Positions 3,473 to 60,850 of a stretch of 64,000 bases of DNA are shown piece after piece. The notes under the pieces are model-generated. The model had not been told where the DNA came from and did not search any database. It saw only the letters and a list, made by a program, of their open reading frames with translations. The position numbers were made by a program, and so were the translations under genes. Position 1 is the first letter of the stretch. Each line of letters starts with the position of its first letter. This DNA comes from a virus. The DNA is taken from the IMG/VR virus record IMGVR_UViG_3300045988_101308, positions 60,792 to 124,791 of that record; one strand, given 5' to 3'.

Positions 3473-3545
3473 GGTCCTGTAGCTTAGTGGTGAAAGCAAG
3501 ATGCTCATAACATCGAGATCGTGGGTTCAAATCCCTCCGGGACCA
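3473..3545 (+). tRNA. tRNA-Met (anticodon CAT; could be Ile2-lysidine)
   Basis: Cloverleaf: acceptor GGTCCTG / CGGGACC; D arm GCTT-AGTGGTGA-AAGC; anticodon loop CTCATAA; T loop GGGTTCAAATCCC. No encoded CCA. Confidence 0.8.
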
Positions 3546-3546
3546 C

Positions 3547-3617
3547 TGTCCAATGGTGTAGTGGTAGCACAACAGATTTTGGTTCTGTTAGCGGAAGTTC
3601 GATCCTTCCTTGGATAA
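3547..3617 (+). tRNA. tRNA-Gln (anticodon TTG)
   Basis: Acceptor TGTCCAA / TTGGATA; anticodon stem ACAGA / TCTGT with loop TTTTGGT; T arm GGAAG-TTCGATC-CTTCC. Starts 1 nt after tRNA-Met. No encoded CCA. Confidence 0.75.
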
Positions 3618-3686
3618 CGATTAAGTTTTTGTGGAAATGTTAATTATCTCAGTGTTTGCGGTGTGTGAACATAGCAAACATTAAAT

Positions 3687-3758
3687 GGCCCATTAGTTTA
3701 ATGGATAAAACCTTTGAGTCCTAATCAAAAGTTGCCTGTTCGATTCAGGCATGGGCTA
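3687..3758 (+). tRNA. tRNA-Arg (anticodon CCT)
   Basis: Acceptor GGCCCAT / ATGGGCT; D stem GTTT / AAAC; anticodon stem TTTGA / TCAAA with loop GTCCTAA; T arm GCCTG-TTCGATT-CAGGC. Confidence 0.8.
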
Positions 3759-3761
3759 CAT

Positions 3762-3833
3762 GGCTTGTTGGATGAGTGGTTTAGTCAGGGGTCCGCAAAA
3801 CCTCGTATGGCGGTTCGATTCCGCCACAAGCCT
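3762..3833 (+). tRNA. tRNA-Cys-like (anticodon GCA) with a non-canonical C33 and a 3-bp D stem
   Basis: Perfect acceptor GGCTTGT / ACAAGCC and T arm GGCGG-TTCGATT-CCGCC. Anticodon stem GGGGT / ACCTC with loop CCGCAAA. Position 33 is C, not the near-universal U, so decoding identity is uncertain. Confidence 0.55.
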
Positions 3834-3850
3834 CTAAAAAAAGTAAGACA

Positions 3851-4839: not shown

Positions 4840-5496
4840 TTATTTCATTACTTTCCTTACCAACTTAGAAACAGCTTGCGTGATAGTCCACCTGATGTTT
4901 GCATTAACATTGATAGTCTGAGGAGTACCGTTTGCATCCAAGTTAATTACCTCCTTGTCTATCTCCAAGAACGGATCACCTGCTGTCTGGGTAATAACCG
5001 TATTAGCTGTCTGACCACCAGCGGCCGTCACCTTAAGAGTATTTACCAGATCGTTTATATTAGTGTTCGCTGCAATACCGGAGAATACGATACTGAAAGC
5101 AAAGCCCCCTGTTGCACCAGGGTCGTCGGCAATAACAGCGCCGTTGTTGGTAGCCTTGCCTGCTGCTTGATAGGAGGCTGGTATTTCCAGCGCCAGAGGA
5201 TGAGACTCGTCTGGAGTTAAGGAGAACGTTAATTTAGTTGAGTTACTTGTACCGTTGATCGTTACAGTACCACCTCCTTTTCCTACTGATGCAGTAGGAT
5301 CTATTTTTACAAACTCAGCTACCGCAGATTGGTTTATGGTAGCACTTTTCTTAACACCACCGGATTCGGCACCAAATTCTACTTGTAACGTACGCTGTAC
5401 ACGACCTTCGTATTTTTCACCTGATACGGTAACCGCCTGATCACCATCACCTGATCCCGGATTGAAGGTTACAAAACCTATTTTCATTTCTGCCAT
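4840..5496 (-). CDS. hypothetical Gly/Thr/Ala/Asn-rich beta-rich protein (possible Ig-like or structural/decoration protein); lone minus-strand gene inside the plus-strand block
   Basis: Minus-strand ORF converging on 4540..4809. Markedly higher GC than the flanks. Its own Bacteroidetes -7 motif lies at 5528-5535 (minus strand). Composition resembles beta-sandwich or surface proteins. Confidence 0.5.
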   Translation of the reverse strand: MAEMKIGFVTFNPGSGDGDQAVTVSGEKYEGRVQRTLQVEFGAESGGVKKSATINQSAVAEFVKIDPTASVGKGGGTVTINGTSNSTKLTFSLTPDESHPLALEIPASYQAAGKATNNGAVIADDPGATGGFAFSIVFSGIAANTNINDLVNTLKVTAAGGQTANTVITQTAGDPFLEIDKEVINLDANGTPQTINVNANIRWTITQAVSKLVRKVMK

Positions 5497-5646: not shown

Positions 5647-5654
5647 TATGTTTG
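5647..5654 (+). promoter_or_regulatory. Bacteroidetes -7 promoter element (TATGTTTG) for the operon 5681-8277
   Basis: TAnnTTTG match 27 nt upstream of the ATG at 5681, in a divergent AT-rich intergenic region. Confidence 0.45.
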
Positions 5655-5680
5655 CAACATCAATATAAAATATTATAACC

Positions 5681-6094
5681 ATGAAAGTGGATTTTTTTAA
5701 CAGTAAGGATTTTTTAGGATCTAAAACTAAAGAAAGCAAGATCCGGAAGTTGTCAATCAGCAAAAGTAAGATAATGACTATCTCTGTCTATAATTTGAAT
5801 TGGATGGGGGTAACGGATGCGGTTGTTATCGGCTTAGAAGAAGGGAAGATATTTGAAGGAGTTGAAAATACGGTCTTTTATCTGGCTGCTTCTGATGTTG
5901 AAGACGAGAGATCGTTTAAGGTAAATAACCTTGGTGTAAAATACAAGAGGATTTACTTAAAAGACCTGCTCGATTATCTTGGATGGGATATAGGAGAAAA
6001 TTCTTATGCTGTGTATGATATTATAAAAGAAGACAGTAATCTATTCCGTCTTCAGCTTAGGGTGATAAAAAAGAGTAGGAGTGAAAAATTATGA
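5681..6094 (+). CDS. hypothetical protein (137 aa), first gene of the HAD/DHH operon
   Basis: Stop codon overlaps the start of the HAD gene (ATGA); no motif. Confidence 0.45.
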   Translation: MKVDFFNSKDFLGSKTKESKIRKLSISKSKIMTISVYNLNWMGVTDAVVIGLEEGKIFEGVENTVFYLAASDVEDERSFKVNNLGVKYKRIYLKDLLDYLGWDIGENSYAVYDIIKEDSNLFRLQLRVIKKSRSEKL

Positions 6095-6966
6095 ACGATG
6101 TAGATATTAAAAACAAAAGAATACTGCTATTCGATTTTGACGGGACGCTTATAGAAACCGCTTCTGGGAATACGTTCGCTACAGACTTGACAGATATGAG
6201 GATTAAGATGGATGTGGTGAATAAGGCTCTTGACCTCATGCAGGAGAACGGTGTTAAGGTATTTGCTATCGTAAGCAATCAAGGAGGAGTAGAAGCTGGG
6301 TTTGTTTCTGGAGCTGATATTGAAGCTAAGATAGAATACGTACTGAGGTCCGTACATGATCTGGCGGTAAAGAGAGGCATAAGAGGCGTCCTATATGAAA
6401 AAAGGTTGTGTTATTCAAATGACGAACAAAATCCGATGAGGAAGCCTAACACTGGCATGATTGATGATATTCTTATGAAGTGTAAAGACACGGTAATGCG
6501 TGGTATGAACTTTAGTCAACTTAAGGGATGTTCGTTGATGGTCGGGGACGCCAGTGGCCTACCAGGGCAGTTCTCTGATTCGGATAAGGTATGTGCTGAG
6601 AAGGCCGGCGTTGAATATATGGATGTTATCACGTTTGTTGGTAAAGACCTTGATTTGAATTATGTGTTGTCCAAAGAACATACAAGTGAAGGAATAGTTA
6701 TTCTAAACAACGATCATATATATATCCTTGAAAATCCATATGGGGTTGGTCTTAATATAAAAATCACTTTAAAAGATTTTTATAAGATTGAAACCGATGA
6801 TGGAAAAACTGCAACCGTAGATGATGTGCTGAATATAAGGATTGATAAAGATCAGAATTTCAATTCATATAGTGATGTTATAAAAATAGAAACATTAAAA
6901 GACGGTAGTATCAAATATACAAGCTTATATCATGAAAGTAAAGAAAACAGCGATAGTTTATCATAA
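6091..6966 (+). CDS. HAD-superfamily phosphatase (PNKP 3'-phosphatase-like or GmhB-like) with a C-terminal extension of about 100 aa
   Basis: HAD motif I LFDFDGTLIE (DxDGT), motif II VSNQGG (S/T), motif III K in RKPNTGM, motif IV MVGDASGLPGQFSDSD. Confidence 0.7.
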   Translation: MNDVDIKNKRILLFDFDGTLIETASGNTFATDLTDMRIKMDVVNKALDLMQENGVKVFAIVSNQGGVEAGFVSGADIEAKIEYVLRSVHDLAVKRGIRGVLYEKRLCYSNDEQNPMRKPNTGMIDDILMKCKDTVMRGMNFSQLKGCSLMVGDASGLPGQFSDSDKVCAEKAGVEYMDVITFVGKDLDLNYVLSKEHTSEGIVILNNDHIYILENPYGVGLNIKITLKDFYKIETDDGKTATVDDVLNIRIDKDQNFNSYSDVIKIETLKDGSIKYTSLYHESKENSDSLS

Positions 6967-7888
6967 ATCGGATTTAGATGGCGTTGTGTCGGCAGCCATC
7001 GCAACTATGTATGAACACAGTAAAAACAAGGATGTTGTTTATATCCCGTATTCGTATGAAGATGATGTTAAGAAAGTTACCAGCAAGGTGCGTGACTTAG
7101 ATGCTGTTTATGTTCTTGACGTGTCTTTCGGAGCCGATTCTAAAACGGTTTTCAAAAAGTGGCTTGATGAAGGAAAGAGCCTGATGTGGATAGATCACCA
7201 TAAGGGAATTATTGAGGACAGTAAGACATGGGGGTTCGTAGTTCCAGGGTTGAGGAGAGTCGGCGTCGGTGCGTGCGCTCTGGCTTCGGACCTGCTTATG
7301 GGGAAGGTGCCGGCGATCGTCCGGTGCCTGTCAGACTACGATGTGTGGAATAAAGAATCTGAATTAGGTTGGGATACGGTAGTAGCTATCCAGTATGCCT
7401 TGAGATCAAAAATAAGACTCAATGTATTAATAGCATTGTCGTATTTGTATGACCATTTTAAAGAAGATATGAAGGACAATGAAATTGATCTTATTTTTTA
7501 TGATCTCGCTAAAGAAGGACGTGCTATAATTAATTACATGGCTGGTAAAAACGAACAAGAGGTAAGTGCGTATTCGTTTGAAGCTTACGTCGATGAGGTG
7601 AAGGTAGTGGCGATGAATACCACGGAATTTAGTTCTAAAGTATTTGATTCTCTTACACGAGACTGGTTAGACGGTAGAAAAATTAAAGCCCTTATGCCAT
7701 TTTGTATCATGCCAGGTGGTAAGGTTAGGTTCTCTCTTTATGAATGCGTGGAAGACAGCGCGGATTGCTGTGAAGTAAGTAAGAGATTCGGTGGTGGAGG
7801 ACATGCTGGTGCTGCTGGGTTTGTGCTTGATGTCACGGATATCAGATTCAGGGAATTTATAGAAAAACATAAACTTATATCACAATGA
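6932..7888 (+). CDS. DHH/DHHA1 phosphoesterase (NrnA-like nanoRNase, or pAp/c-di-NMP phosphodiesterase family)
   Basis: DHH motifs HKSDLDG (I), VLDVSFG (II), WIDHHKG (III, DHH); DHHA1 motif FGGGGHAGAAGF near the C-terminus. Confidence 0.75.
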   Translation: MKVKKTAIVYHKSDLDGVVSAAIATMYEHSKNKDVVYIPYSYEDDVKKVTSKVRDLDAVYVLDVSFGADSKTVFKKWLDEGKSLMWIDHHKGIIEDSKTWGFVVPGLRRVGVGACALASDLLMGKVPAIVRCLSDYDVWNKESELGWDTVVAIQYALRSKIRLNVLIALSYLYDHFKEDMKDNEIDLIFYDLAKEGRAIINYMAGKNEQEVSAYSFEAYVDEVKVVAMNTTEFSSKVFDSLTRDWLDGRKIKALMPFCIMPGGKVRFSLYECVEDSADCCEVSKRFGGGGHAGAAGFVLDVTDIRFREFIEKHKLISQ

Positions 7889-8277
7889 AGTGCGAACTGT
7901 ATCAATTTTCCCCACAAGTCTATCCCTTTAATCTGTGGATATATGTAGGTAAAGATGTTTCTGGTATGGTAGAGTGTTTCAATAACGATTTTAGTTACAT
8001 AGATAATAGTATGGGCGCAACCATAACCGTACCGTATGGAGGATGCAAATTAGATCCTTGCACAGGATTCTTGATATGGTTTATTAATAAGAACGTTATT
8101 GATTTTAACACAGTCTCACACGAGGCAGCCCATGTGTCTCTCAATGCATTTGATTTCTTAGGAGAAAAAGTAATGCAATCAGAACCTTTCTGCTACCTCG
8201 TTGGATGGGTGGCAGGAAAGTGTGAAGAAGTAAAGAAAGGAAAAGTACGAGATAAATTAATATGGGAAAGTAAGTGA
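7885..8277 (+). CDS. small HExxH protein (putative Zn metallopeptidase-like, ImmA/DUF955-like)
   Basis: SHEAAHVSL contains HEAAH (HExxH). 130 aa. Overlaps the DHH gene stop by 4 nt. Confidence 0.4.
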   Translation: MKCELYQFSPQVYPFNLWIYVGKDVSGMVECFNNDFSYIDNSMGATITVPYGGCKLDPCTGFLIWFINKNVIDFNTVSHEAAHVSLNAFDFLGEKVMQSEPFCYLVGWVAGKCEEVKKGKVRDKLIWESK

Positions 8278-8311
8278 GGTAATTTTAAAATATTGTTGGT
8301 TGTAGTAAGTG

Positions 8312-8346
8312 GGGAGGTCCTAAATAGGCTTCCCTGCTTTTTTTTA
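8312..8346 (+). terminator. rho-independent terminator of the 5681-8277 operon
   Basis: Stem GGGAGG / CTTCCC, 11-nt loop, then TGCTTTTTTTT. Confidence 0.65.
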
Positions 8347-8368
8347 TGTGATGAGGAAGAAAGGTAAA

Positions 8369-8570
8369 AATGTTTATGTTACGGGAGAGAGATTAAGAAT
8401 GTTTATGTGATAGGAGAGAAGCTAAAAAAGGTTTGTGTGATGAGGGATATGAAAGATGTTTATGTGATGGGAGAGAGATTAAGAATGTTTATGTGATAGG
8501 AGAGAAGCTAAAAAAGGTTTGTGTGATGAGGGATATGAAAGATGTTTATGTGATGGGAGAGAGGGGGTAC
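8369..8570 (+). repeat. iteron array: 6-7 contiguous copies of a 25-33-bp unit, consensus ATGTTTATGTGATRGGAGAGA; higher-order period 86 bp
   Basis: Unit starts: AATGTTTATGTTACGGGAGAGAGATTAAG (8369), AATGTTTATGTGATAGGAGAGAAGCT... (8398), GTTTGTGTGATGAGGGATATGAAAG (8430), ATGTTTATGTGATGGGAGAGAGATTAAG (8455), then an exact 86-bp repeat of the last three. No spacers, so not CRISPR. Confidence 0.8.
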
Positions 8571-17474: not shown

Positions 17475-17990
17475 ATGAAAAAGATAAAAGTAGACAAAGT
17501 GATATTATATTACATGGATCGGGTAGACCCTGACGGGAACCTATACCGGTTCTATGTATATAAAGGCATGGCATCTGAAATAGAATACTTTTGCACGGAA
17601 AAGGCAGGCAATATGACTATACCAATCGGAGAAGGAGAGTATGTCAAGATTGTACCAAAAGAAATAGAGAAAATACCAGTAAGGGGATATAGGAAGCTTA
17701 CTGGAATATGGAATCGTGAAACATGTAACGGGAAGGGATGGTATAGGCTTTTTAATTATTTCAAATACAAGCCGACCCTATGTTATTTTAAAAAAGCGGG
17801 ACATGGTGAAAATGGGAACACAAGATACGAAATATCATTATTTAACAACATTATAAATGTGACAAGATATTTTAATCTGTGGAGAATGAAGCCAGGAAAG
17901 TATGCTATGGTAACAAACGAGTGTGGCGCCTTGGATGTTATAAAAGAAAAATTTGACAACATAAATATAGTGGAATATGGATCTGAATGA
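17475..17990 (+). CDS. hypothetical protein (171 aa)
   Basis: Plus-strand tiling ORF overlapping the upstream stop; no motif. Confidence 0.45.
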   Translation: MKKIKVDKVILYYMDRVDPDGNLYRFYVYKGMASEIEYFCTEKAGNMTIPIGEGEYVKIVPKEIEKIPVRGYRKLTGIWNRETCNGKGWYRLFNYFKYKPTLCYFKKAGHGENGNTRYEISLFNNIINVTRYFNLWRMKPGKYAMVTNECGALDVIKEKFDNINIVEYGSE

Positions 17991-19706
17991 ATTGTACAAA
18001 GAAATAGAAAAAGCAGAGGTTGATCTGAATGCAAAAAGATTAAAGTACATCAAAGAGGCATTAGTGGAGAACGGTGGAAGTATAAAGCTAAAATTCAAAG
18101 AATTTAAAGAGTTTAAAGAAACTAATGATGCGTTTGACTTCGATGATCAGTTTCCGGTGATAATAGAAATTGCTGGGATTCCTATGTATTTAACGGAAGT
18201 GTATGTCAAAAAAAACGATTTTCGTATAGTTCTGCTGGATTATGATGATATGACTTTAGGTGATTATGATAATACAGGGGAAAATGAACAGGTTGCTTAT
18301 TTTATTAACTATTGTTTAAATCAAGACAAAGATGGGAAAGAGTAGAAAAGATTATGAGAAGTTTCTTAACTCCATATCTCCAGATAGAGACGATGAAGCA
18401 TGGGTTATTGGAGGAAAGAACAGGTATTGCGGTAGAGAGAATTATGGCACTATGATCAAAAGGTATGATCCTATTGGTTTTAATGTAGGGTACAGGGAGT
18501 GGGTAGAACAGCCAGGGTAAGGCGACGCCTGCCCTGCCATGAGGTCGGCCTGGCTGTTCGTGACCAGGACCGTACATTAGTCAGATAGTGAACAGCGAAA
18601 ACAATGCATAAAATGGGAAACGAATTAAAACTTAACAGCGCAGAAGAAGCAGAAGTAGTCTTAATAAGATTAACTCCAGAAGAGTATCCTATTGCGTACG
18701 CAAATAAGGTGAAATGTTTAATGCTTTCAGGTCTTAGCAAGAAAGAAGCTGAGAGGATGGCGATGGAGCCAATAGATCTTGAACTGTATTATGAAGTAGG
18801 TGTAGGACTGATGGCGGTAGAACCTGGAGCGGTGGAAGCCGGAACAATATACAGTCCATATTCAGGGGAATTATATGACAATTCAAAAATTTAATGAGGT
18901 AATTATATACCTAAAATAATAGCTTATGACATTCAAAGAATTTATGAAAGAAGTGGGCTATAACCTAATGACTACCTTTTGGGAAGATTTCAGCATAGCC
19001 GACAAGTATGGTATAGCAGGTGTCAAGGATACCTACAGACGTGCGTTTAATGAATGGAAAGATGATTATAAGTTTTTCACGGAATTAACGCTTGTATTGA
19101 ATCATAAAATCTGGCAGCATTATGAAGGTGATCGCGAACTGGCTGCATTGTATGACCGGTTGTGGCGAGAAGCTGACGAGTATGCCATGAACAACTTTAA
19201 GGGAGAAGAACTTGATTATTATTACAGAATAACAGATTAAAAGTGGTTATGAAAAATACGATAGTAACAGGTAGCCTAATTGTATTCAGTGACGGATTTG
19301 TTTGGAAAAGATTGTCCAACGAAAAAGCCTATAAGATATGGGTGTCGGCAGAAAATGAAGATTTTGAGTTATACAAGATAAGAATAGATGATGAGTCTGA
19401 GTCATTGATAGAGAGTCTTGAAGACTTGCAGGATGCCTTTAAACAAGGTCATTATGTATGTATAGAAGTAGGCAAGCTACCATATAGCATAGATTTGAAT
19501 TATTTACGAAATCTGCAAGAGATGTCGGTGATAGCCGTGGATGATCTAATGGGATTAAAAGAATGTAGCAGGGAAGAGGCATTTGCCATCATTCAAGAGT
19601 GGGCTAAAGAGTTTACAGAGAAATATGGGGATTTTGATGGCTCATACTATGATGTAATAGATGAATTTATCGAAGAAAAATTAAGAACTATTTAAAATAT
19701 AAAGAC

Positions 19707-26662: not shown

Positions 26663-27325
26663 ATGAACAATTTTATAATAGATACTCCAGATAATTTCTG
26701 GCAAATAAGATGGCTTGACAAATATATGGAAGGTCACAAGGGGTTCATAGCTGGTGGATGTTTTAAGAATATCCTTTCCGGAGAAAAAGTAAAAGATATT
26801 GATATTTTCTTTGAAAGCGAAGACGATTTTCAGGAAGCTGTTGATTTGTTCAATGATGAAAAACATCAGAAAGAAGGATGGAAATTTAAGTACAGGAATG
26901 AGAAGGTATGTGCGTTCCATAAAGAGGGAGAAAGGGTATGGATAGAGTTCATAGAGTCAGAGTTCGGAAAGCCTGAAGAGATTCTCAGGAGCTTCGACTT
27001 TACTGTGGCAAAAATGGCTTACTACAAGGAGCCTAAATACGAAGAAGAGGAAGATGATTATTTTCCATTCTCATCTGCAAGTATAGTAGCATACGAGTAC
27101 AAACTACTCTACCATGAGAAATTCTTTGAACATCTTCATATGAAGAGGCTGGTCATTGATGAAAATATTCCTTTTCCAGTAAGCACATGGGAACGCTCAT
27201 ATCGGTATAAAGGATATGGTTACAATATGTGCCGGGAGACAAAGAAAAAACTTCTACAGGCTCTTAAAGGTGTAAACGTAGAGGAGGAAGATGTATCTTT
27301 GTACACTACTGGAGGATGGGATTAA
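26663..27325 (+). CDS. minimal Pol-beta-superfamily nucleotidyltransferase of the tRNA CCA-adding / poly(A) polymerase class II head-domain type (220 aa)
   Basis: FIAGGCFKNILSGEKVKDIDIFF matches GGxVRDxLLGxxxKDxD. RSFDFTVAKMAY matches the RRDFTINAMA motif. Too short to contain a full neck/body region. Confidence 0.65.
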   Translation: MNNFIIDTPDNFWQIRWLDKYMEGHKGFIAGGCFKNILSGEKVKDIDIFFESEDDFQEAVDLFNDEKHQKEGWKFKYRNEKVCAFHKEGERVWIEFIESEFGKPEEILRSFDFTVAKMAYYKEPKYEEEEDDYFPFSSASIVAYEYKLLYHEKFFEHLHMKRLVIDENIPFPVSTWERSYRYKGYGYNMCRETKKKLLQALKGVNVEEEDVSLYTTGGWD

Positions 27326-44948: not shown

Positions 44949-46370
44949 ATGGGCTTTGAACTTAGACCTTACCAAAAAGAAGCAGTAGATGCCGGGCTTA
45001 AGTTTCTTACAGGAAGATCTAAGAAGCCTGGCATAATCGTAGCCCCATGCGGATGTGGAAAGAGCCTTCTGATATCCAAGATAGCACATGAAATAAATAG
45101 ACCGACATTAGTATTACAGCCCTCAAAAGAGATTCTGGAGCAGAATTATGCAAAGGCCGTATCATTCGGTTCTAAACCTACTATATATTCTGCTTCATGT
45201 GGTATAAAGGAGCTGTCGGCTATGACTTATGCTACACTTAAAAGCATAAAGAAAGACGTAGCAAGGTTGAAAGATATAGGGATAGATACCTTATTGATAG
45301 ACGAATGTCATTCAGGATATTCTCCTGAAGAAGGTTCTGAATTTATGGAGTTTATGAACGGGTTCCCAGAGGCGAAGGTGCTGGGCTTCACCGCCACTCC
45401 CTGCCGCCTCCGAACCTACAGTTCCATGCTGGAAGGAAACTATAGCAAGCTCAATATGCTGACGAAAGACGAGCATAACTTCTTCAAGAAAATAGTTCAT
45501 GTGACTCAAATACAAGAACTAACTTCTCAAGGGTTTTGGTGTCCACTTAAGTACGAACGATGGTCGTTTGATGAATCAGCTCTGATGTTAAACAGCACCG
45601 GGGCTGAATACACCAACGAATCTATTAAAGAAAGTATTGTACGAAACGGCTTAAACAACTCTATCTACAAGCGCCTTCTTCAACTTATGAACGAACGTAA
45701 AGCCATTTTGGTTTGCATGGATTCTATCGAATCATGTAATAGAATATCAGAGTTCATGAATGCCAAGATGGGAGCTATAACCGGTGTCGTGACATCGCTA
45801 ACAACCAAAAAGAAAAGAGAACAAATCATATCCGATTTCAAAGAAGGTAAGTTGAAGGTGGTTTTTAATTATTCAACGCTTGCTACCGGATTTGACTTTC
45901 CTGAACTTGATTGTGTGATGTTTGGACGTCCAACTTTCTCATATTCAGTATATTACCAAGTGCTCGGTCGATGTGTCCGCATCCATCCTGACAAGAAAGA
46001 GGCGCTGATAGTTGATTGCTGCGACAACATGAGGCGTTTCGGTCGGATAGAAGACCTGACAATCGAGCAATTCCCTTCTAAGGGCTGGTGTATGTTTGCC
46101 GGCAATCAACTTCTGTCTAATATAAGGATGGGTGATATTATTACCAAAGACGAGATCCTTCGTCGGGCAGCCTCGCTTAAATCTGTGAATGGAGATGGTA
46201 GGAGAGAAGACGATCTTGACAGTATAATAATGTGGTTTGGAAAATATGAAGGAATTAGATTCAAGGACATACCGGTGTCGTATTTTAGGTTCTTGGCTGA
46301 GAATATGGCAGTAAAACCAGGAGACAGAAAAGAAAAGATTATCGAATATTATAATAGGATAAAAGCATGA
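44949..46370 (+). CDS. SF2 DEAD/DEAH-box-type helicase (DECH)
   Basis: Motif I APCGCGKS; motif II LLIDECH; motif III FTATPCR; motif VI YYQVLGRCVRI; preceded by a Q-motif-like PYQKEA. Confidence 0.8.
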   Translation: MGFELRPYQKEAVDAGLKFLTGRSKKPGIIVAPCGCGKSLLISKIAHEINRPTLVLQPSKEILEQNYAKAVSFGSKPTIYSASCGIKELSAMTYATLKSIKKDVARLKDIGIDTLLIDECHSGYSPEEGSEFMEFMNGFPEAKVLGFTATPCRLRTYSSMLEGNYSKLNMLTKDEHNFFKKIVHVTQIQELTSQGFWCPLKYERWSFDESALMLNSTGAEYTNESIKESIVRNGLNNSIYKRLLQLMNERKAILVCMDSIESCNRISEFMNAKMGAITGVVTSLTTKKKREQIISDFKEGKLKVVFNYSTLATGFDFPELDCVMFGRPTFSYSVYYQVLGRCVRIHPDKKEALIVDCCDNMRRFGRIEDLTIEQFPSKGWCMFAGNQLLSNIRMGDIITKDEILRRAASLKSVNGDGRREDDLDSIIMWFGKYEGIRFKDIPVSYFRFLAENMAVKPGDRKEKIIEYYNRIKA

Positions 46371-47393
46371 ACAACAAGAGAAGAAAAAAAATATCAGATG
46401 TTATTAACAACGTAAATAAGTATAAAACAGATTTTGAATACATCAAATCAAAGTTGTCGGAGTTGAAGCACAACATAAATTCAGCCAAAGATGATGTTGA
46501 TATGATTTTAGACGAAGAGACTGAGGCGAGAGATAATATACCAGAATCGTTACAAGACTCAGAAAGATATTGGGAATCAGATCAGGCTGTAACTGATATG
46601 GAGGAGGTGGTTGATGACATGGAAGGTATTATAAATGATTTAGATGATGTGATTTCAACCATAGATGGGAGCATTAAAACCATAAATGGTTCTATAAAAG
46701 TAAATTTAGTAGGAATAATATAAATGGAAACAAATGAATTAAGGGAAATACTTAAATTGTATGGTCTTCAACATGATGTTGTTATCAACAAAAGTTCAAG
46801 AAGGTATTCCATTATATTGGATAACAATATAATAGGAACCAACCACGCCGAAGAGAGGGTGGTTGTGTTCCGTCCTATACCGGAAGGAAAAAACACATTC
46901 TGCATGGAGCGAGATAGGTTCTACACGGAGTTTGAAGAAGCTTTTGATGATGATAAAGCCATAGAAGCCGTAAGACAATATTTTGAAAACAATAAAAACA
47001 GAAAGTCATGAACGAAAATGAAATATTTAGATTAAAGGGAAGAATAGCCATATCCAACCTATCACGTAAGGACAAGGATATGATAAATAGCATCCTTGAT
47101 GGTATTAACAAAAAGGATGAAGATGAAAAAGGGTATGTCTATACCGTAAGAATAAAACAAAACAACGGAAGGGTTGTGCATGCTACTTTATTTTTTAAAG
47201 ACAAGAAAGGCCCTACATTTGAAGATTTAAAGAAGGAGCTTGATGACATGGGAGTTAAAAATGATAGTTATAGCAATAACGGCATAATTATCATTAACCG
47301 CATTGTCATGAGCGGAGAAGAATTTGACCGCTTTGCAAAAGAAAAATGATGGACTATATTATTATATCAAATAATTAAAACAACGATAAAACA

Positions 47394-47951
47394 ATGGAAA
47401 AGATGGACAATAATACTAAAAACATCCTTTATCCAAAAGGATCTATTTTTCGCATGTTGGAAAGTGATGTAATCAGTTCCGAATTAGAAATAGCCAGAGG
47501 AGCTATAGTGGAGGCAGTATCAGACATAGAGGTAGATGATGAATATGCTGAGGTTTGTTGCAATGGAGAGACGTTTATCGTAGGAACGGACATTATGGGT
47601 ATTATTCCTGTCAAAGTATCCAGAGAAAACAAATCGGTGAAAAATGACATCATTGACGATAAACTACGATGGGATTTACTTCCAATGGAAGAGATTGAGG
47701 ACATTGTAAAAGTCTATCATGCTGGTGCAAAGAAGTACGGACCCAATAAATGGCAGAACCTTGACAACGGGTTTGAACGGTATCGTGCTGCGGCTGCCAG
47801 ACACCTAATGGAATACATGAAAGGGGAAAGAATAGACTCAGATACAGGATGTTTTCATCTTGCACAATGTGCATGGAACTGCATAGCTATGCTGTGGTAT
47901 GACAAGCACGGGAAAGGATTAATACCAATAAATAAGGAGGAAAAGAAATGA
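47394..47951 (+). CDS. hypothetical protein (185 aa); possibly a nucleotide-pyrophosphohydrolase-like domain
   Basis: RWDLLPMEEIEDIVKVYHAGAKKYG...W...RYRAAAARHLMEY is vaguely reminiscent of phage dNTP diphosphohydrolase N-terminal domains; unverified. Confidence 0.3.
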   Translation: MEKMDNNTKNILYPKGSIFRMLESDVISSELEIARGAIVEAVSDIEVDDEYAEVCCNGETFIVGTDIMGIIPVKVSRENKSVKNDIIDDKLRWDLLPMEEIEDIVKVYHAGAKKYGPNKWQNLDNGFERYRAAAARHLMEYMKGERIDSDTGCFHLAQCAWNCIAMLWYDKHGKGLIPINKEEKK

Positions 47952-60482: not shown

Positions 60483-60850
60483 ATTATAAACATTTCTTTC
60501 AAAATACTATTTTGTATACTATATATCAATTTCATCCCATCTCTATCATATACGTCAAAAAAGGATTCACTTAAGTTCTTTGGATTTACATTCAGTTGAA
60601 TTATGCAATTACCGGTATAAACCTTAATCCCGTAATTATCAGAGTATATATCCTGCATAGTATCAAATGTCTCAATTAAATTTTCAACAAGGGCTCTGTT
60701 AAATGAAAAAGATTCTTTACCATTACCTTTAAATGTGATATGATCTAAATTAATGTTGTCAAATACATACTCTAACTGATTGCCGTCCATCATATTATAA
60801 GTGATTGACTTTTTGATTACAAATCCCATATTATTCTGTTTTTTTAGTTG

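Follow-up and report, generated by a model that had tools for sequence, protein, structure and literature searches.

A predicted HAD 3'-phosphatase paired with a DHH/DHHA1 phosphoesterase in a dispensable transcription unit of a gut Bacteroidota phage

The DNA analysed here (the window) is a stretch of 64,000 nucleotides from the viral record IMGVR_UViG_3300045988_101308, positions 60,792 to 124,791, and it carries a cassette of four co-directional, overlapping ORFs on the + strand that together span 5681-8277 (Table 1). Consecutive ORFs overlap by 4 nt (ORF1/2), 35 nt (ORF2/3) and 4 nt (ORF3/4), and all four genes are under purifying selection, with dN/dS values of 0.13-0.19 (0.19 for ORF1). 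The -7 promoter box, TATGTTTG, lies 27 nt 5' of the ORF1 ATG, within a 184-nt AT-rich gap that separates divergent genes. By itself the TAnnTTTG pattern is not enriched across the window (77 found vs 70 expected); the box is kept in 72 of 73 related loci at -34/-33 from the ORF1 ATG, and variation is confined to the nn positions. At the other end, the terminator hairpin folds with -18.7 kcal/mol (z = -3.1). A preliminary description of this DNA had a promoter and a terminator bracketing four overlapping genes, and the ORF, motif and folding checks agree with it. The four-gene operon that it proposed holds as anatomy but not as a fixed unit, since about 50 of 78 close relatives lack ORF4.

Table 1. 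Coordinates of the genes and expression signals of the cassette, numbered from the first letter of the window.
Feature	Position	Strand	Description
-7 promoter box TATGTTTG	5647..5654	+	Bacteroidetes-type; fits TAnnTTTG; read from sequence
ORF1	5681..6094	+	137 aa; lineage-restricted orphan; no family match
ORF2	6091..6966	+	291 aa; predicted HAD 3'-phosphatase with C-terminal extension; PF08645, HAD-IIIA
ORF3	6932..7888	+	318 aa; two-domain DHH/DHHA1 phosphoesterase; catalytic motifs complete
ORF4	7885..8277	+	130 aa; small HExxH...E protein (zincin-like motif); phrog_1365
Intrinsic terminator	8307..8347	+	13-bp G+C-rich stem (8307-8339), 7-nt loop, then T8 run

The cassette forms a transcription unit of its own, and a dispensable one, in a gut Bacteroidota phage of about 150 kb. 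Upstream of it in the window are genes for RuvC, a sliding clamp, SSB and an MmcB-like protein, and the same genome arm encodes a dUTPase, a thymidylate synthase and a dATP/dGTP diphosphohydrolase. Natural variants include deletions, several circulating alleles and, in some relatives, insertion of an IscB-like gene, while the catalytic domain of the DHH protein has been lost recurrently. As the natural deletions show, replication does not require the cassette.

Residues 11-177 of ORF2 correspond to a HAD-IIIA polynucleotide 3'-phosphatase domain of the PNKP/Tpp1 type, without a kinase domain, and the protein is predicted to be such an enzyme. It matches PF08645 (PNK3P) with 73.8 bits (cut-off 22; E = 1.7e-20) and TIGR01662 (HAD-IIIA) with 51.3, above the cut-off of 44.6; its score against the DNA 3'-phosphatase equivalog TIGR01664 is 71.8, below the cut-off of 107.65 (E = 6e-20). 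A bifunctional PNKP was rejected as an identity, as only the phosphatase part of TIGR01663 is matched (46.7 vs a cut-off of 502.8), and the match to the T4-type family PF25109 is insignificant (E = 0.079). The four catalytic motifs, read from the translation, are complete (D15-F-D17-G-T19, S62, K118, and G152-D153 with D163/D165), and ORF2 aligns to the phosphatase domain of mouse PNKP, DxDGT (motif I) included. HAD enzymes of this cap-less type accept polymer ends. ORF2 thus shares its HAD fold family and its DxDGT, S/T, K and GD motifs with PNKP, Tpp1 and ZDP. It differs from them in having no fused 5'-kinase or FHA domain, in scoring below the NCBIfam DNA 3'-phosphatase cut-off, in being phage-encoded beside a DHH gene, and in carrying a variable, beta-rich C-terminal extension of about 105 aa (residues ~185-291). 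This extension is missing from many relatives, about 30 of 78 having a HAD form of ~185-190 aa without it, and its profile has no match in PDB or Pfam. The motif IV Asp is missing in 18 of 116 related cluster representatives, or about 15% of HAD alleles.

ORF3 has the two-lobed architecture of the DHH/DHHA1 phosphoesterases, its domains joined by a long helical linker (residues ~147-214). Its scores against the Pfam models are 24.3 for DHH (PF01368; gathering score 28.1) and 22.4 for DHHA1 (PF02272; gathering score 25.9), whereas phrog_4771 is matched at 2.6e-27 and a profile of the ORF3 family matches DHH proteins in the PDB at 1e-8. Residues H11, D14, D16, D63, D88, H89, H90 and D137 and the motif G288-G-G-H291 are invariant across 42 homologues, and the catalytic residues of ORF3 are all intact. 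Its clade appears to be largely virus-specific: homologues were almost confined to viral contigs in a scan by short peptide patterns, which is indicative and non-exhaustive. The complete HAD and DHH/DHHA1 motifs and the 3'-phosphatase likeness that had been reported for this pair of genes are therefore upheld.

ORF3 shares only 12-18% identity with any DHH enzyme that has been characterised. The nearest solved relatives are all enzymes directed at 3' ends, namely MjRecJ2, the DHH domain of HAN, a PAP phosphatase and the NrnB-like protein 6mtz of H. pylori, the last being the best PDB profile match and covering both domains at 1e-8; one ORF3 homologue is labelled NrnB by JGI. NrnB proteins (6mtz included), RecJ2 and HAN share with ORF3 the DHH/DHHA1 two-domain plan, the helical linker and the catalytic motifs. 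Among the NrnB clades A-C (PMC12709177), clade A has a C-terminal extension that is absent from ORF3, as are the S1/OB/Zn modules of HAN. The NrnA, GdpP, Pde2 and CnpB proteins share with it the superfamily, a size of about 320 aa and the GGGH motif, and the closest GenBank record labels the ORF3 counterpart NrnA. We do not adopt that label: no NCBIfam NrnA model matches at E <= 1, and PDB chains of NrnA and GdpP align over only ~60 residues at the DHHA1 GGGH region. The earlier assignment to an NrnA/GdpP family was thus too specific. An identity as RecJ was likewise rejected (TIGR00644 15.9 vs a cut-off of 396.9). With two domains and no OB-fold or other DNA-binding module, ORF3 is minimal, like DHH enzymes that act on short oligonucleotides.

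The two remaining genes differ in how closely they follow this pair. ORF1 travels with it, being present in 75 of 78 close loci, where two alleles occur (~98% and ~62% identity), and has no match in Pfam, PHROG or NCBIfam. An exhaustive HMMER search of 1.84 billion representatives returned 10 matches, all lineage relatives or repeat proteins; two of them are repeat proteins rich in PF09479, and residues ~52-99 of ORF1 bear a weak likeness to the Listeria-Bacteroides repeat (InlB B-repeat/Flg_new). ORF1 and the HAD C-terminal extension, when compared, were unrelated. ORF4 is an independently mobile passenger among Bacteroidota phages that elsewhere is not tied to a DHH gene. It occurs in 28 of 78 close loci (absent from ~64% of close relatives) and matches phrog_1365 (5e-11). 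The HEAAH motif noted previously is present, and homologues from LoVEphage, a Porphyromonas phage and crAss-like phages, which stand in unrelated gene surroundings, all keep H79, H83, E100, Y104 and G107, though one distant homologue has HDxxH in place of HExxH. Searches with ORF4, profile searches included, found no Pfam or PDB match, its similarity to the 'zincin' gene of the crAss-like ctbg_1 was not significant, and an AF2 model from 8 close homologues (pLDDT 44) was of too low quality to be searched for its fold.

The HAD and DHH genes, which overlap by 35 nt in the window, occur together in 76 of 78 close loci, and one relative (P0007) carries a natural in-frame HAD-DHH fusion. This pairing is confined to a single lineage of ~150-kb gut phages. 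In 48 other DHH groups, the +/-5 kb around the DHH gene contained no PNK3P gene, and no DHH, ORF1 or ORF4 homologue was found within +/-4 kb of PNK3P at 80 other PNK3P loci; in MT836001 both genes are present, one at each end of a linear scaffold of 14 kb. Predicted viral DHH phosphohydrolases of the phrog_4771 type, which resemble ORF3 in their ~300-aa two-domain fold (TM ~0.7), are encoded by the jumbo phages PaBG, PhiEaH1, RP12 and AR9 and by Marseille-, Klosneu- and Pithoviruses, and a paired PNK3P phosphatase was not found at the phage loci of this kind that we examined.

Our tentative preference is that the two enzymes act one after the other, as a 3'-phosphatase and a DHH exonuclease that dispose of and salvage oligonucleotides for phage DNA synthesis. 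Metal-independent RNases and some DNases leave 3'-phosphate ends. ORF2 would strip such phosphates off single-stranded RNA or DNA fragments, and ORF3, in a Mn2+/Mg2+-dependent reaction, would turn the unblocked oligonucleotides exonucleolytically into 5'-mononucleotides, probably from the 3' end. Host and phage oligonucleotides would in this way enter the nucleotide pool feeding phage DNA synthesis. The known biochemistry of the relatives fits such a sequence of events, in that NrnB proteins attack RNA at its 3' end, with a preference for short substrates (PMC12709177), and HAN needs a free 3'-OH, its removal of the first nucleotide being strongly inhibited by a 3'-phosphate (PMC6158738). This block of HAN offers a direct rationale for giving such an enzyme a 3'-phosphatase as partner.

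Fragment degradation for salvage, one of two roles first proposed for these genes, is thus consistent with the 3'->5' exonucleases and nanoRNases among the solved relatives, with the 3'-phosphate block of HAN and with the neighbouring genes. We also count in its favour the tight HAD-DHH coupling, the context of the genome arm, the minimal two-domain ORF3, and the adjacency of distant DHH homologues to genes for dGTP diphosphohydrolase, ThyX and dCMP deaminase. Against it we count the identity of 12-18%, the restriction of the pairing to a single lineage, the losses of the motif IV Asp and the natural deletions. NrnA works 5'->3', so a 3' polarity of ORF3 is not guaranteed. Moreover, the neighbours of distant homologues belong as often to recombination and replication (SF2 helicase, PDDEXK, RusA, SSB, ligase) as to nucleotide metabolism, and those neighbours favour a role in repair equally.

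Such a role is a close rival, although we consider it unlikely on balance. PNKP and Tpp1 are DNA 3'-phosphatases that act on nicks and breaks, and the PNK3P family is defined by enzymes of this activity. ORF2 could accordingly clean 3' ends of DNA for recombination, repair or replication, while ORF3 could work as an ssDNA exonuclease like RecJ2 or HAN, trimming flaps or resecting ends together with phage helicase and nucleases. In the largest group of related gut phages, 92 of ~104 loci have an SF2 helicase gene directly 5' of the DHH gene, and a PDDEXK nuclease is encoded nearby; RusA, SSB, DNA ligase and RecF/SMC genes adjoin further homologues, a HAD homologue lies near DNA ligase in ctbg_1, and the cassette itself follows the RuvC, clamp, SSB and MmcB-like genes. 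Nevertheless, in this lineage the DHH gene is displaced from the helicase and nuclease genes and forms part of a separate transcription unit that is lost in natural variants, DNA ligase is not annotated in the closest complete genome, and ORF3 scores below the RecJ equivalog cut-off and is without the OB-fold and the additional domains seen in RecJ and HAN.

The other role first proposed, degradation of cyclic nucleotides by a new class of anti-defence enzyme, gained no positive support, and we regard it as distinctly improbable that ORF3, alone or with ORF2, destroys a host immune second messenger, be it SAM-AMP (type III-B CRISPR-CorA), a cyclic oligoadenylate or a signal of CBASS, Pycsar or Thoeris. 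There is precedent among DHH-family phosphodiesterases acting on such messengers. Bacteroides type III-B CRISPR-CorA signals via SAM-AMP, which is specifically degraded by B. fragilis NrN and not by generalist RNases (PMC10600005), and Sulfolobus MAD is a membrane-bound DHH nuclease that degrades cA4 (PMC8284326). The likely host clade is also the source of NrN, and an anti-defence function would suit both the almost entirely viral distribution of the ORF3 clade and the accessory-like nature of the cassette, which has a promoter and a terminator to itself, varies in presence and in alleles, and has recurrently lost the catalytic domain. Two distant phages also have Tad2-like or Acb2/Tad1-like genes 2-5 kb from the DHH gene. 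NrN and MAD are, however, host-encoded off-switches or co-effectors, and NrN is linked to CorA; ORF3 is soluble, unlike MAD, lies beside a 3'-phosphatase, and has no CorA/cmr context because it belongs to a phage. No specific sequence affinity of ORF3 to NrN or MAD was detected; for NrN the comparison covered the Nrn-type structures 3w5w and 4py9 of B. fragilis, to which ORF3 has only a weak match.

Nor do the four proteins resemble known anti-defence nucleases: PADLOC returned nothing for any of the four, there is no Pfam link, and none of them has a Pfam, PHROG or PADLOC match to the Acb1 2H-phosphoesterase, the Apyc1 MBL fold or AcrIII-1/DUF1874, the fold of ORF3 being DHH/DHHA1. A scan for anti-defence families among the ten ORFs 3' of the cassette returned nothing but one weak EcoRI-like match. 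Across the 48 DHH groups the neighbours are replication and nucleotide-metabolism genes rather than anti-defence islands, and the sponge-family genes near two of the inspected loci do not amount to a consistent link. It is not obvious what a 3'-phosphatase would contribute against 3'-5' cyclic signals, NrnB-type proteins do not cut c-di-AMP (PMC12709177), and the literature searched contained no paper describing an anti-defence DHH enzyme from a phage. In its most specific form, slightly more doubtful again, the proposal would make the virus-specific DHH protein a counter-defence phosphodiesterase for a messenger that ordinary RNases cannot remove, most likely SAM-AMP and otherwise cyclic oligoadenylates. 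It would then be the first DHH-family anti-CRISPR or anti-signalling enzyme, and the recurrent loss of its catalytic domain would reflect host-dependent costs. Of the preliminary interpretation as a whole, then, the enzyme assignments and the operon anatomy stand, the salvage option fits the evidence, and the anti-defence option is improbable.

The least probable alternative is the healing of RNA ends, in which ORF2 would remove 3'-phosphates or 2',3'-cyclic phosphates left on tRNAs by host anticodon or acceptor-stem nucleases, ORF3 would trim and a CCA-adding enzyme would rebuild: phage tRNA genes lie ~1.8 kb upstream of the cassette and the closest genome encodes a CCA-adding/polyA polymerase and a Ro60-like protein, but no RNA ligase is annotated there, the CCA-adding gene is ~19 kb away and outside the cassette (window 26663-27325, where only synteny identifies it with the polyA/CCA-adding gene of OR575929 and there is no Pfam match), and ORF2 lacks a 5'-kinase domain and matches well the family of eukaryotic and bacterial DNA 3'-phosphatases rather than the T4 type. 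T4 Pnkp is the precedent here: this HAD 3'-phosphatase of a phage heals the ends of nucleic acids and counters a tRNA nuclease, but it has a fused 5'-kinase and works with RNA ligase, neither of which the cassette encodes.

The cassette enzymes are members of known enzyme kinds, and under salvage or repair they would serve ordinary auxiliary nucleic-acid metabolism; degradation of an immune messenger by the DHH enzyme would instead bring a new class of enzyme into phage counter-defence, in a setting where the main CRISPR type of the probable host clade signals through a DHH-cleavable molecule. Many large phages and giant viruses have genes annotated as DHH/DHHA1 phosphoesterases of ~300 aa, and we found no study of the function of these enzymes in the literature searched. 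The present locus is a clean test case for them, as the DHH gene is hard-wired to a 3'-phosphatase gene and natural knock-out, fusion and allelic variants exist. The lineage is also very abundant in human gut metagenomes, with thousands of member sequences behind its cluster representatives.

The four genes of the cassette form a compact transcription unit whose features are listed in the table. Consecutive reading frames overlap by 4, 35 and 4 nt, and pairwise comparisons with relatives gave dN/dS values of 0.13-0.19 for each gene, indicating that ORF1-ORF4 are all genuine coding genes. The unit is bordered by a divergently oriented gene on its 5' side and by a 770-nt repeat-rich spacer on its 3' side. 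The box TATGTTTG matches the Bacteroidetes -7 consensus TAnnTTTG, a motif that is uninformative alone (77 occurrences window-wide vs 70 expected). In 72 of 73 related phage loci such a box precedes the start of ORF1 by 33-34 nt, even where ORF1 is only 62% identical, with variation confined to the two free (nn) positions. The terminator stem folds with an energy of -18.7 kcal/mol (z = -3.1). Thus, the operon drawn in the preliminary description, with four overlapping genes between a Bacteroidetes-type promoter at 5647 and a terminator at 8312-8346, is upheld by the coding signal, the conserved box position and the folding, respectively.

Features of the cassette, its borders and an insertion seen in related loci
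Feature	Coordinates	Strand	Remarks
ORF1	5681-6094	+	orphan
ORF2	6091-6966	+	HAD, PF08645 (PNK3P) type
ORF3	6932-7888	+	DHH/DHHA1
ORF4	7885-8277	+	phrog_1365, HExxH...E
Flanking gene	4840-5496	-	divergently oriented; 5' border of cassette
-7 box TATGTTTG	5647-5654	+	fits TAnnTTTG
Terminator	8307-8339	+	coordinates of the 13-bp stem; T8 follows; from folding
IscB-like insert, related locus L015	4751-5977		RuvC-like N-terminus, HNH motif; absent from window
IscB-like insert, related locus L041	4784-5977		RuvC-like N-terminus, HNH motif; absent from window

A tandem array lies right behind the terminator (window 8343-8563), and can be described as ~7.7 copies of a 29-30-nt unit or as 2.3 copies of an 86-nt unit with a 97% match. 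In IMG/VR, many of the lineage's contigs stop ~0.3-1.6 kb past the DHH/ORF4 genes, and the record of the closest complete phage genome, csAssE-Sib (OR575929), begins ~2.2 kb past ORF4. This array might correspond to points where assemblies break, to the end of the genome or to an origin.

Profile searches place both central enzymes in known families, of which they are divergent new members. Residues 11-177 of ORF2 match PF08645 (PNK3P) at 1.7e-20, far over the cut-off, and its N-terminal half, including DxDGT, aligns with the phosphatase domain of mouse PNKP; the kinase part is absent from ORF2 in these searches. The protein scores over the HAD-IIIA cut-off and under that of the DNA 3'-phosphatase equivalog, and its HAD motifs are complete. 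For residues ~185-291, relatives were detected only within the lineage; this part is missing from ~30 of 78 close relatives, which carry a short HAD form. Among the homologues, 18 of 116 cluster representatives (~15%; P0273-P0296) have S, N, G or Y in place of the motif IV Asp (LMVG-D-ASG) while retaining DxDGT, and to judge from this substitution phosphatase activity may be altered or lost in these alleles. Some lineage phages encode an additional HAD protein of PNK3P type (L326, L328 and L329, on the contigs of L064, L084 and L090) at ~35-60 kb from the cassette; the window and OR575929 contain one such gene each.

ORF3 matches phrog_4771 at 2.6e-27, with each Pfam match sub-threshold. Its catalytic residues (H11, D14, D16, D63, D88-H89-H90, D137 and GGGH288-291) are invariant across 42 aligned homologues, the most distant of them at ~30% identity, and its AF2 model is confident (pLDDT 93.3). 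Among solved structures, the top sequence-profile match is H. pylori 6mtz, which covers both domains; next are B. burgdorferi DhhP, a T. maritima PDE and M. jannaschii RecJ2, and for NrnA and GdpP chains the match is limited to the surroundings of GGGH. Identities are 12-18% throughout, so ORF3 represents a distinct subfamily. The best matches in a viral structure library (TM ~0.7) come from jumbo phages and giant viruses and are uncharacterized DHH phosphohydrolases. A short-peptide pattern scan of 185,579 species genomes, to be read as indicative, recovered only 24 weak relatives (<=34% identity), none of them in Bacteroidota, and each IMG/VR scan returned >400, which argues that the clade is largely viral.

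ORF4 matches phrog_1365 (5e-11) and has homologues in LoVEphage, Porphyromonas phages and crAss-like phages, where it occurs in unrelated contexts: adjoining a helicase, between portal and capsid genes, or beside a nucleotide-modification gene. H79, H83, E100, Y104 and G107 are invariant across these homologues, a pattern that reads as a zincin-like HExxH...E signature. ORF1, an orphan, has one stretch that weakly resembles an InlB B-repeat. The motif-based assignments made initially, namely a HAD enzyme resembling 3'-phosphatases, a complete DHH/DHHA1 phosphoesterase and a last gene with HEAAH, all agree with the homologue comparisons.

Gene presence and absence, insertions and deletions among 78 close IMG/VR loci indicate that the cassette is accessory and dispensable, with the HAD-DHH pair as its core. 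ORF1, HAD and DHH are retained together in 76 of these loci, and ORF4 in only 28. In the other 2 loci ORF1 and HAD are missing along with the N-terminal catalytic third of DHH; natural deletions of DHH motifs I-III, in some cases together with ORF1 and HAD, are represented by L087, L088, P0015 and P0018. In ~9 loci a gene for a 397-408-aa RuvC+HNH protein (IscB-like/RRXRR-HNH) is inserted between HAD and DHH, and one 2.6-kb contig encodes an intact in-frame HAD-DHH fusion of 536 aa (P0007).

The pairing is confined to this lineage. After dereplication of 235 DHH loci at 60% identity into 50 groups, none of the 48 other DHH groups had a PNK3P gene within +/-5 kb of DHH, and none of 80 other phage PNK3P loci had DHH, ORF1 or ORF4 nearby. 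DHH neighbors in the other groups include SF2 helicases, which immediately precede DHH in 92 loci of a single large gut-phage group, as well as PDDEXK, RusA, SSB, PHP, ThyX, dCMP deaminase, dGTP diphosphohydrolase, DNA ligase, HD, NYN and portal genes. The HAD homologue of crAss-like ctbg_1 sits amid ThyX, dNMP kinase, DNA ligase and dUTPase. These neighborhoods place both enzymes among the phage genes for replication, recombination and nucleotide metabolism, and it is the present lineage that joined them. The sole unusual feature of the cassette is that, in this lineage specifically, a PNKP-type phosphatase lacking the kinase is coupled to a virus-specific DHH/DHHA1 enzyme within a transcription unit that is both self-contained and dispensable.

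The cassette region is 86% identical in DNA to csAssE-Sib, a 151-kb human gut phage. All four genes occur there too; in order, their annotations read hypothetical, 'polynucleotide kinase, 3 phosphatase', 'phosphodiesterase / NrnA' and hypothetical. The upstream genome arm encodes thymidylate synthase, RuvC, a sliding clamp, SSB, dUTPase, four tRNAs and an MmcB-like protein, and the remaining genome encodes helicases, a PDDEXK exonuclease, dATP/dGTP diphosphohydrolase, CCA-adding/polyA polymerase and a Ro60-like protein. Phages of this lineage are very abundant: the ORF3 cluster representatives cover member sequences numbering in the thousands, on ~145-155-kb contigs.

The characterized enzymes nearest ORF3 are 3'-end-directed. 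RNA degradation by NrnB proteins runs 3'->5', with a preference for short molecules, and leaves c-di-AMP uncut (PMC12709177); short DNA is a further substrate of the B. subtilis NrnB (PMC10570053). A cap-less HAD-IIIA 3'-phosphatase encoded immediately upstream, in an overlapping reading frame, would unblock 3'-phosphorylated substrates and suggests sequential action, in which ORF2 would convert 3'-phosphate ends to 3'-OH and ORF3 would then degrade the unblocked oligonucleotide to 5'-mononucleotides. We tentatively favor oligonucleotide disposal and salvage as the role of the cassette, based on the minimal two-domain architecture and the nucleotide-metabolism neighbors. Cleaning of DNA ends is rather unlikely; helicase, nuclease and ligase neighbors, together with structural matches to RecJ2 and HAN, an archaeal DHH exonuclease, give it nearly as much contextual support as salvage has.

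The initial interpretation is upheld in part. Salvage was one of two roles initially proposed; the other, destruction of immune messengers, gained no positive support and appears improbable, and its specific form, an anti-CRISPR against SAM-AMP/cOA, is if anything harder to credit. DHH enzymes elsewhere do cleave such messengers in cells: NrN, the partner of a B. fragilis type III-B CRISPR system, specifically hydrolyzes SAM-AMP, which generalist RNases leave (PMC10600005), and a Sulfolobus DHH-DHHA1 nuclease degrades cA4 (PMC8284326). The cassette also behaves in populations as an accessory gene set, and sponge-family genes lie a few kb downstream of distant DHH homologues in two gut phages (an Acb2/Tad1-hairpin gene at 5 kb, L006 11779-12024; a Tad2-like gene at 2 kb, L007 9244-9783). 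However, c-di-AMP is not cleaved by the NrnB-type relatives, a 3'-phosphatase has no obvious role against 3'-5' cyclic molecules, none of the four cassette proteins was homologous to Acb1, Apyc1 or AcrIII-1 or matched a defense database, and literature searches yielded no report of a phage DHH counter-defense enzyme. The interest of the cassette is modest, and would become high only with proof of messenger-degrading activity. Healing of tRNA ends is very improbable, as the cassette has no kinase and no ligase; neither RNA nor DNA ligase is among the annotations of the closest genome.

Several other features of these genomes were recorded. A tRNA cluster (Met-CAT, Gln-TTG, Arg-CCT, Cys-GCA; window 3473-3834) lies 1.8 kb upstream of the cassette. 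The dATP/dGTP diphosphohydrolase (PF18909, 3.7e-26) maps to window 47394-47951, and a gene of this family is immediately downstream of DHH in the distant phage L006. A 122-aa ORF (window 17977-18345) has a weak, sub-cut-off match to an EcoRI-like restriction endonuclease (E = 5e-4). Finally, beyond the stretch that corresponds to the window, OR575929 (L002) carries two annotated TnpB genes and an annotated diversity-generating retroelement (45751-47816; VR/TR/IMH plus reverse transcriptase) at a tail-fiber gene.
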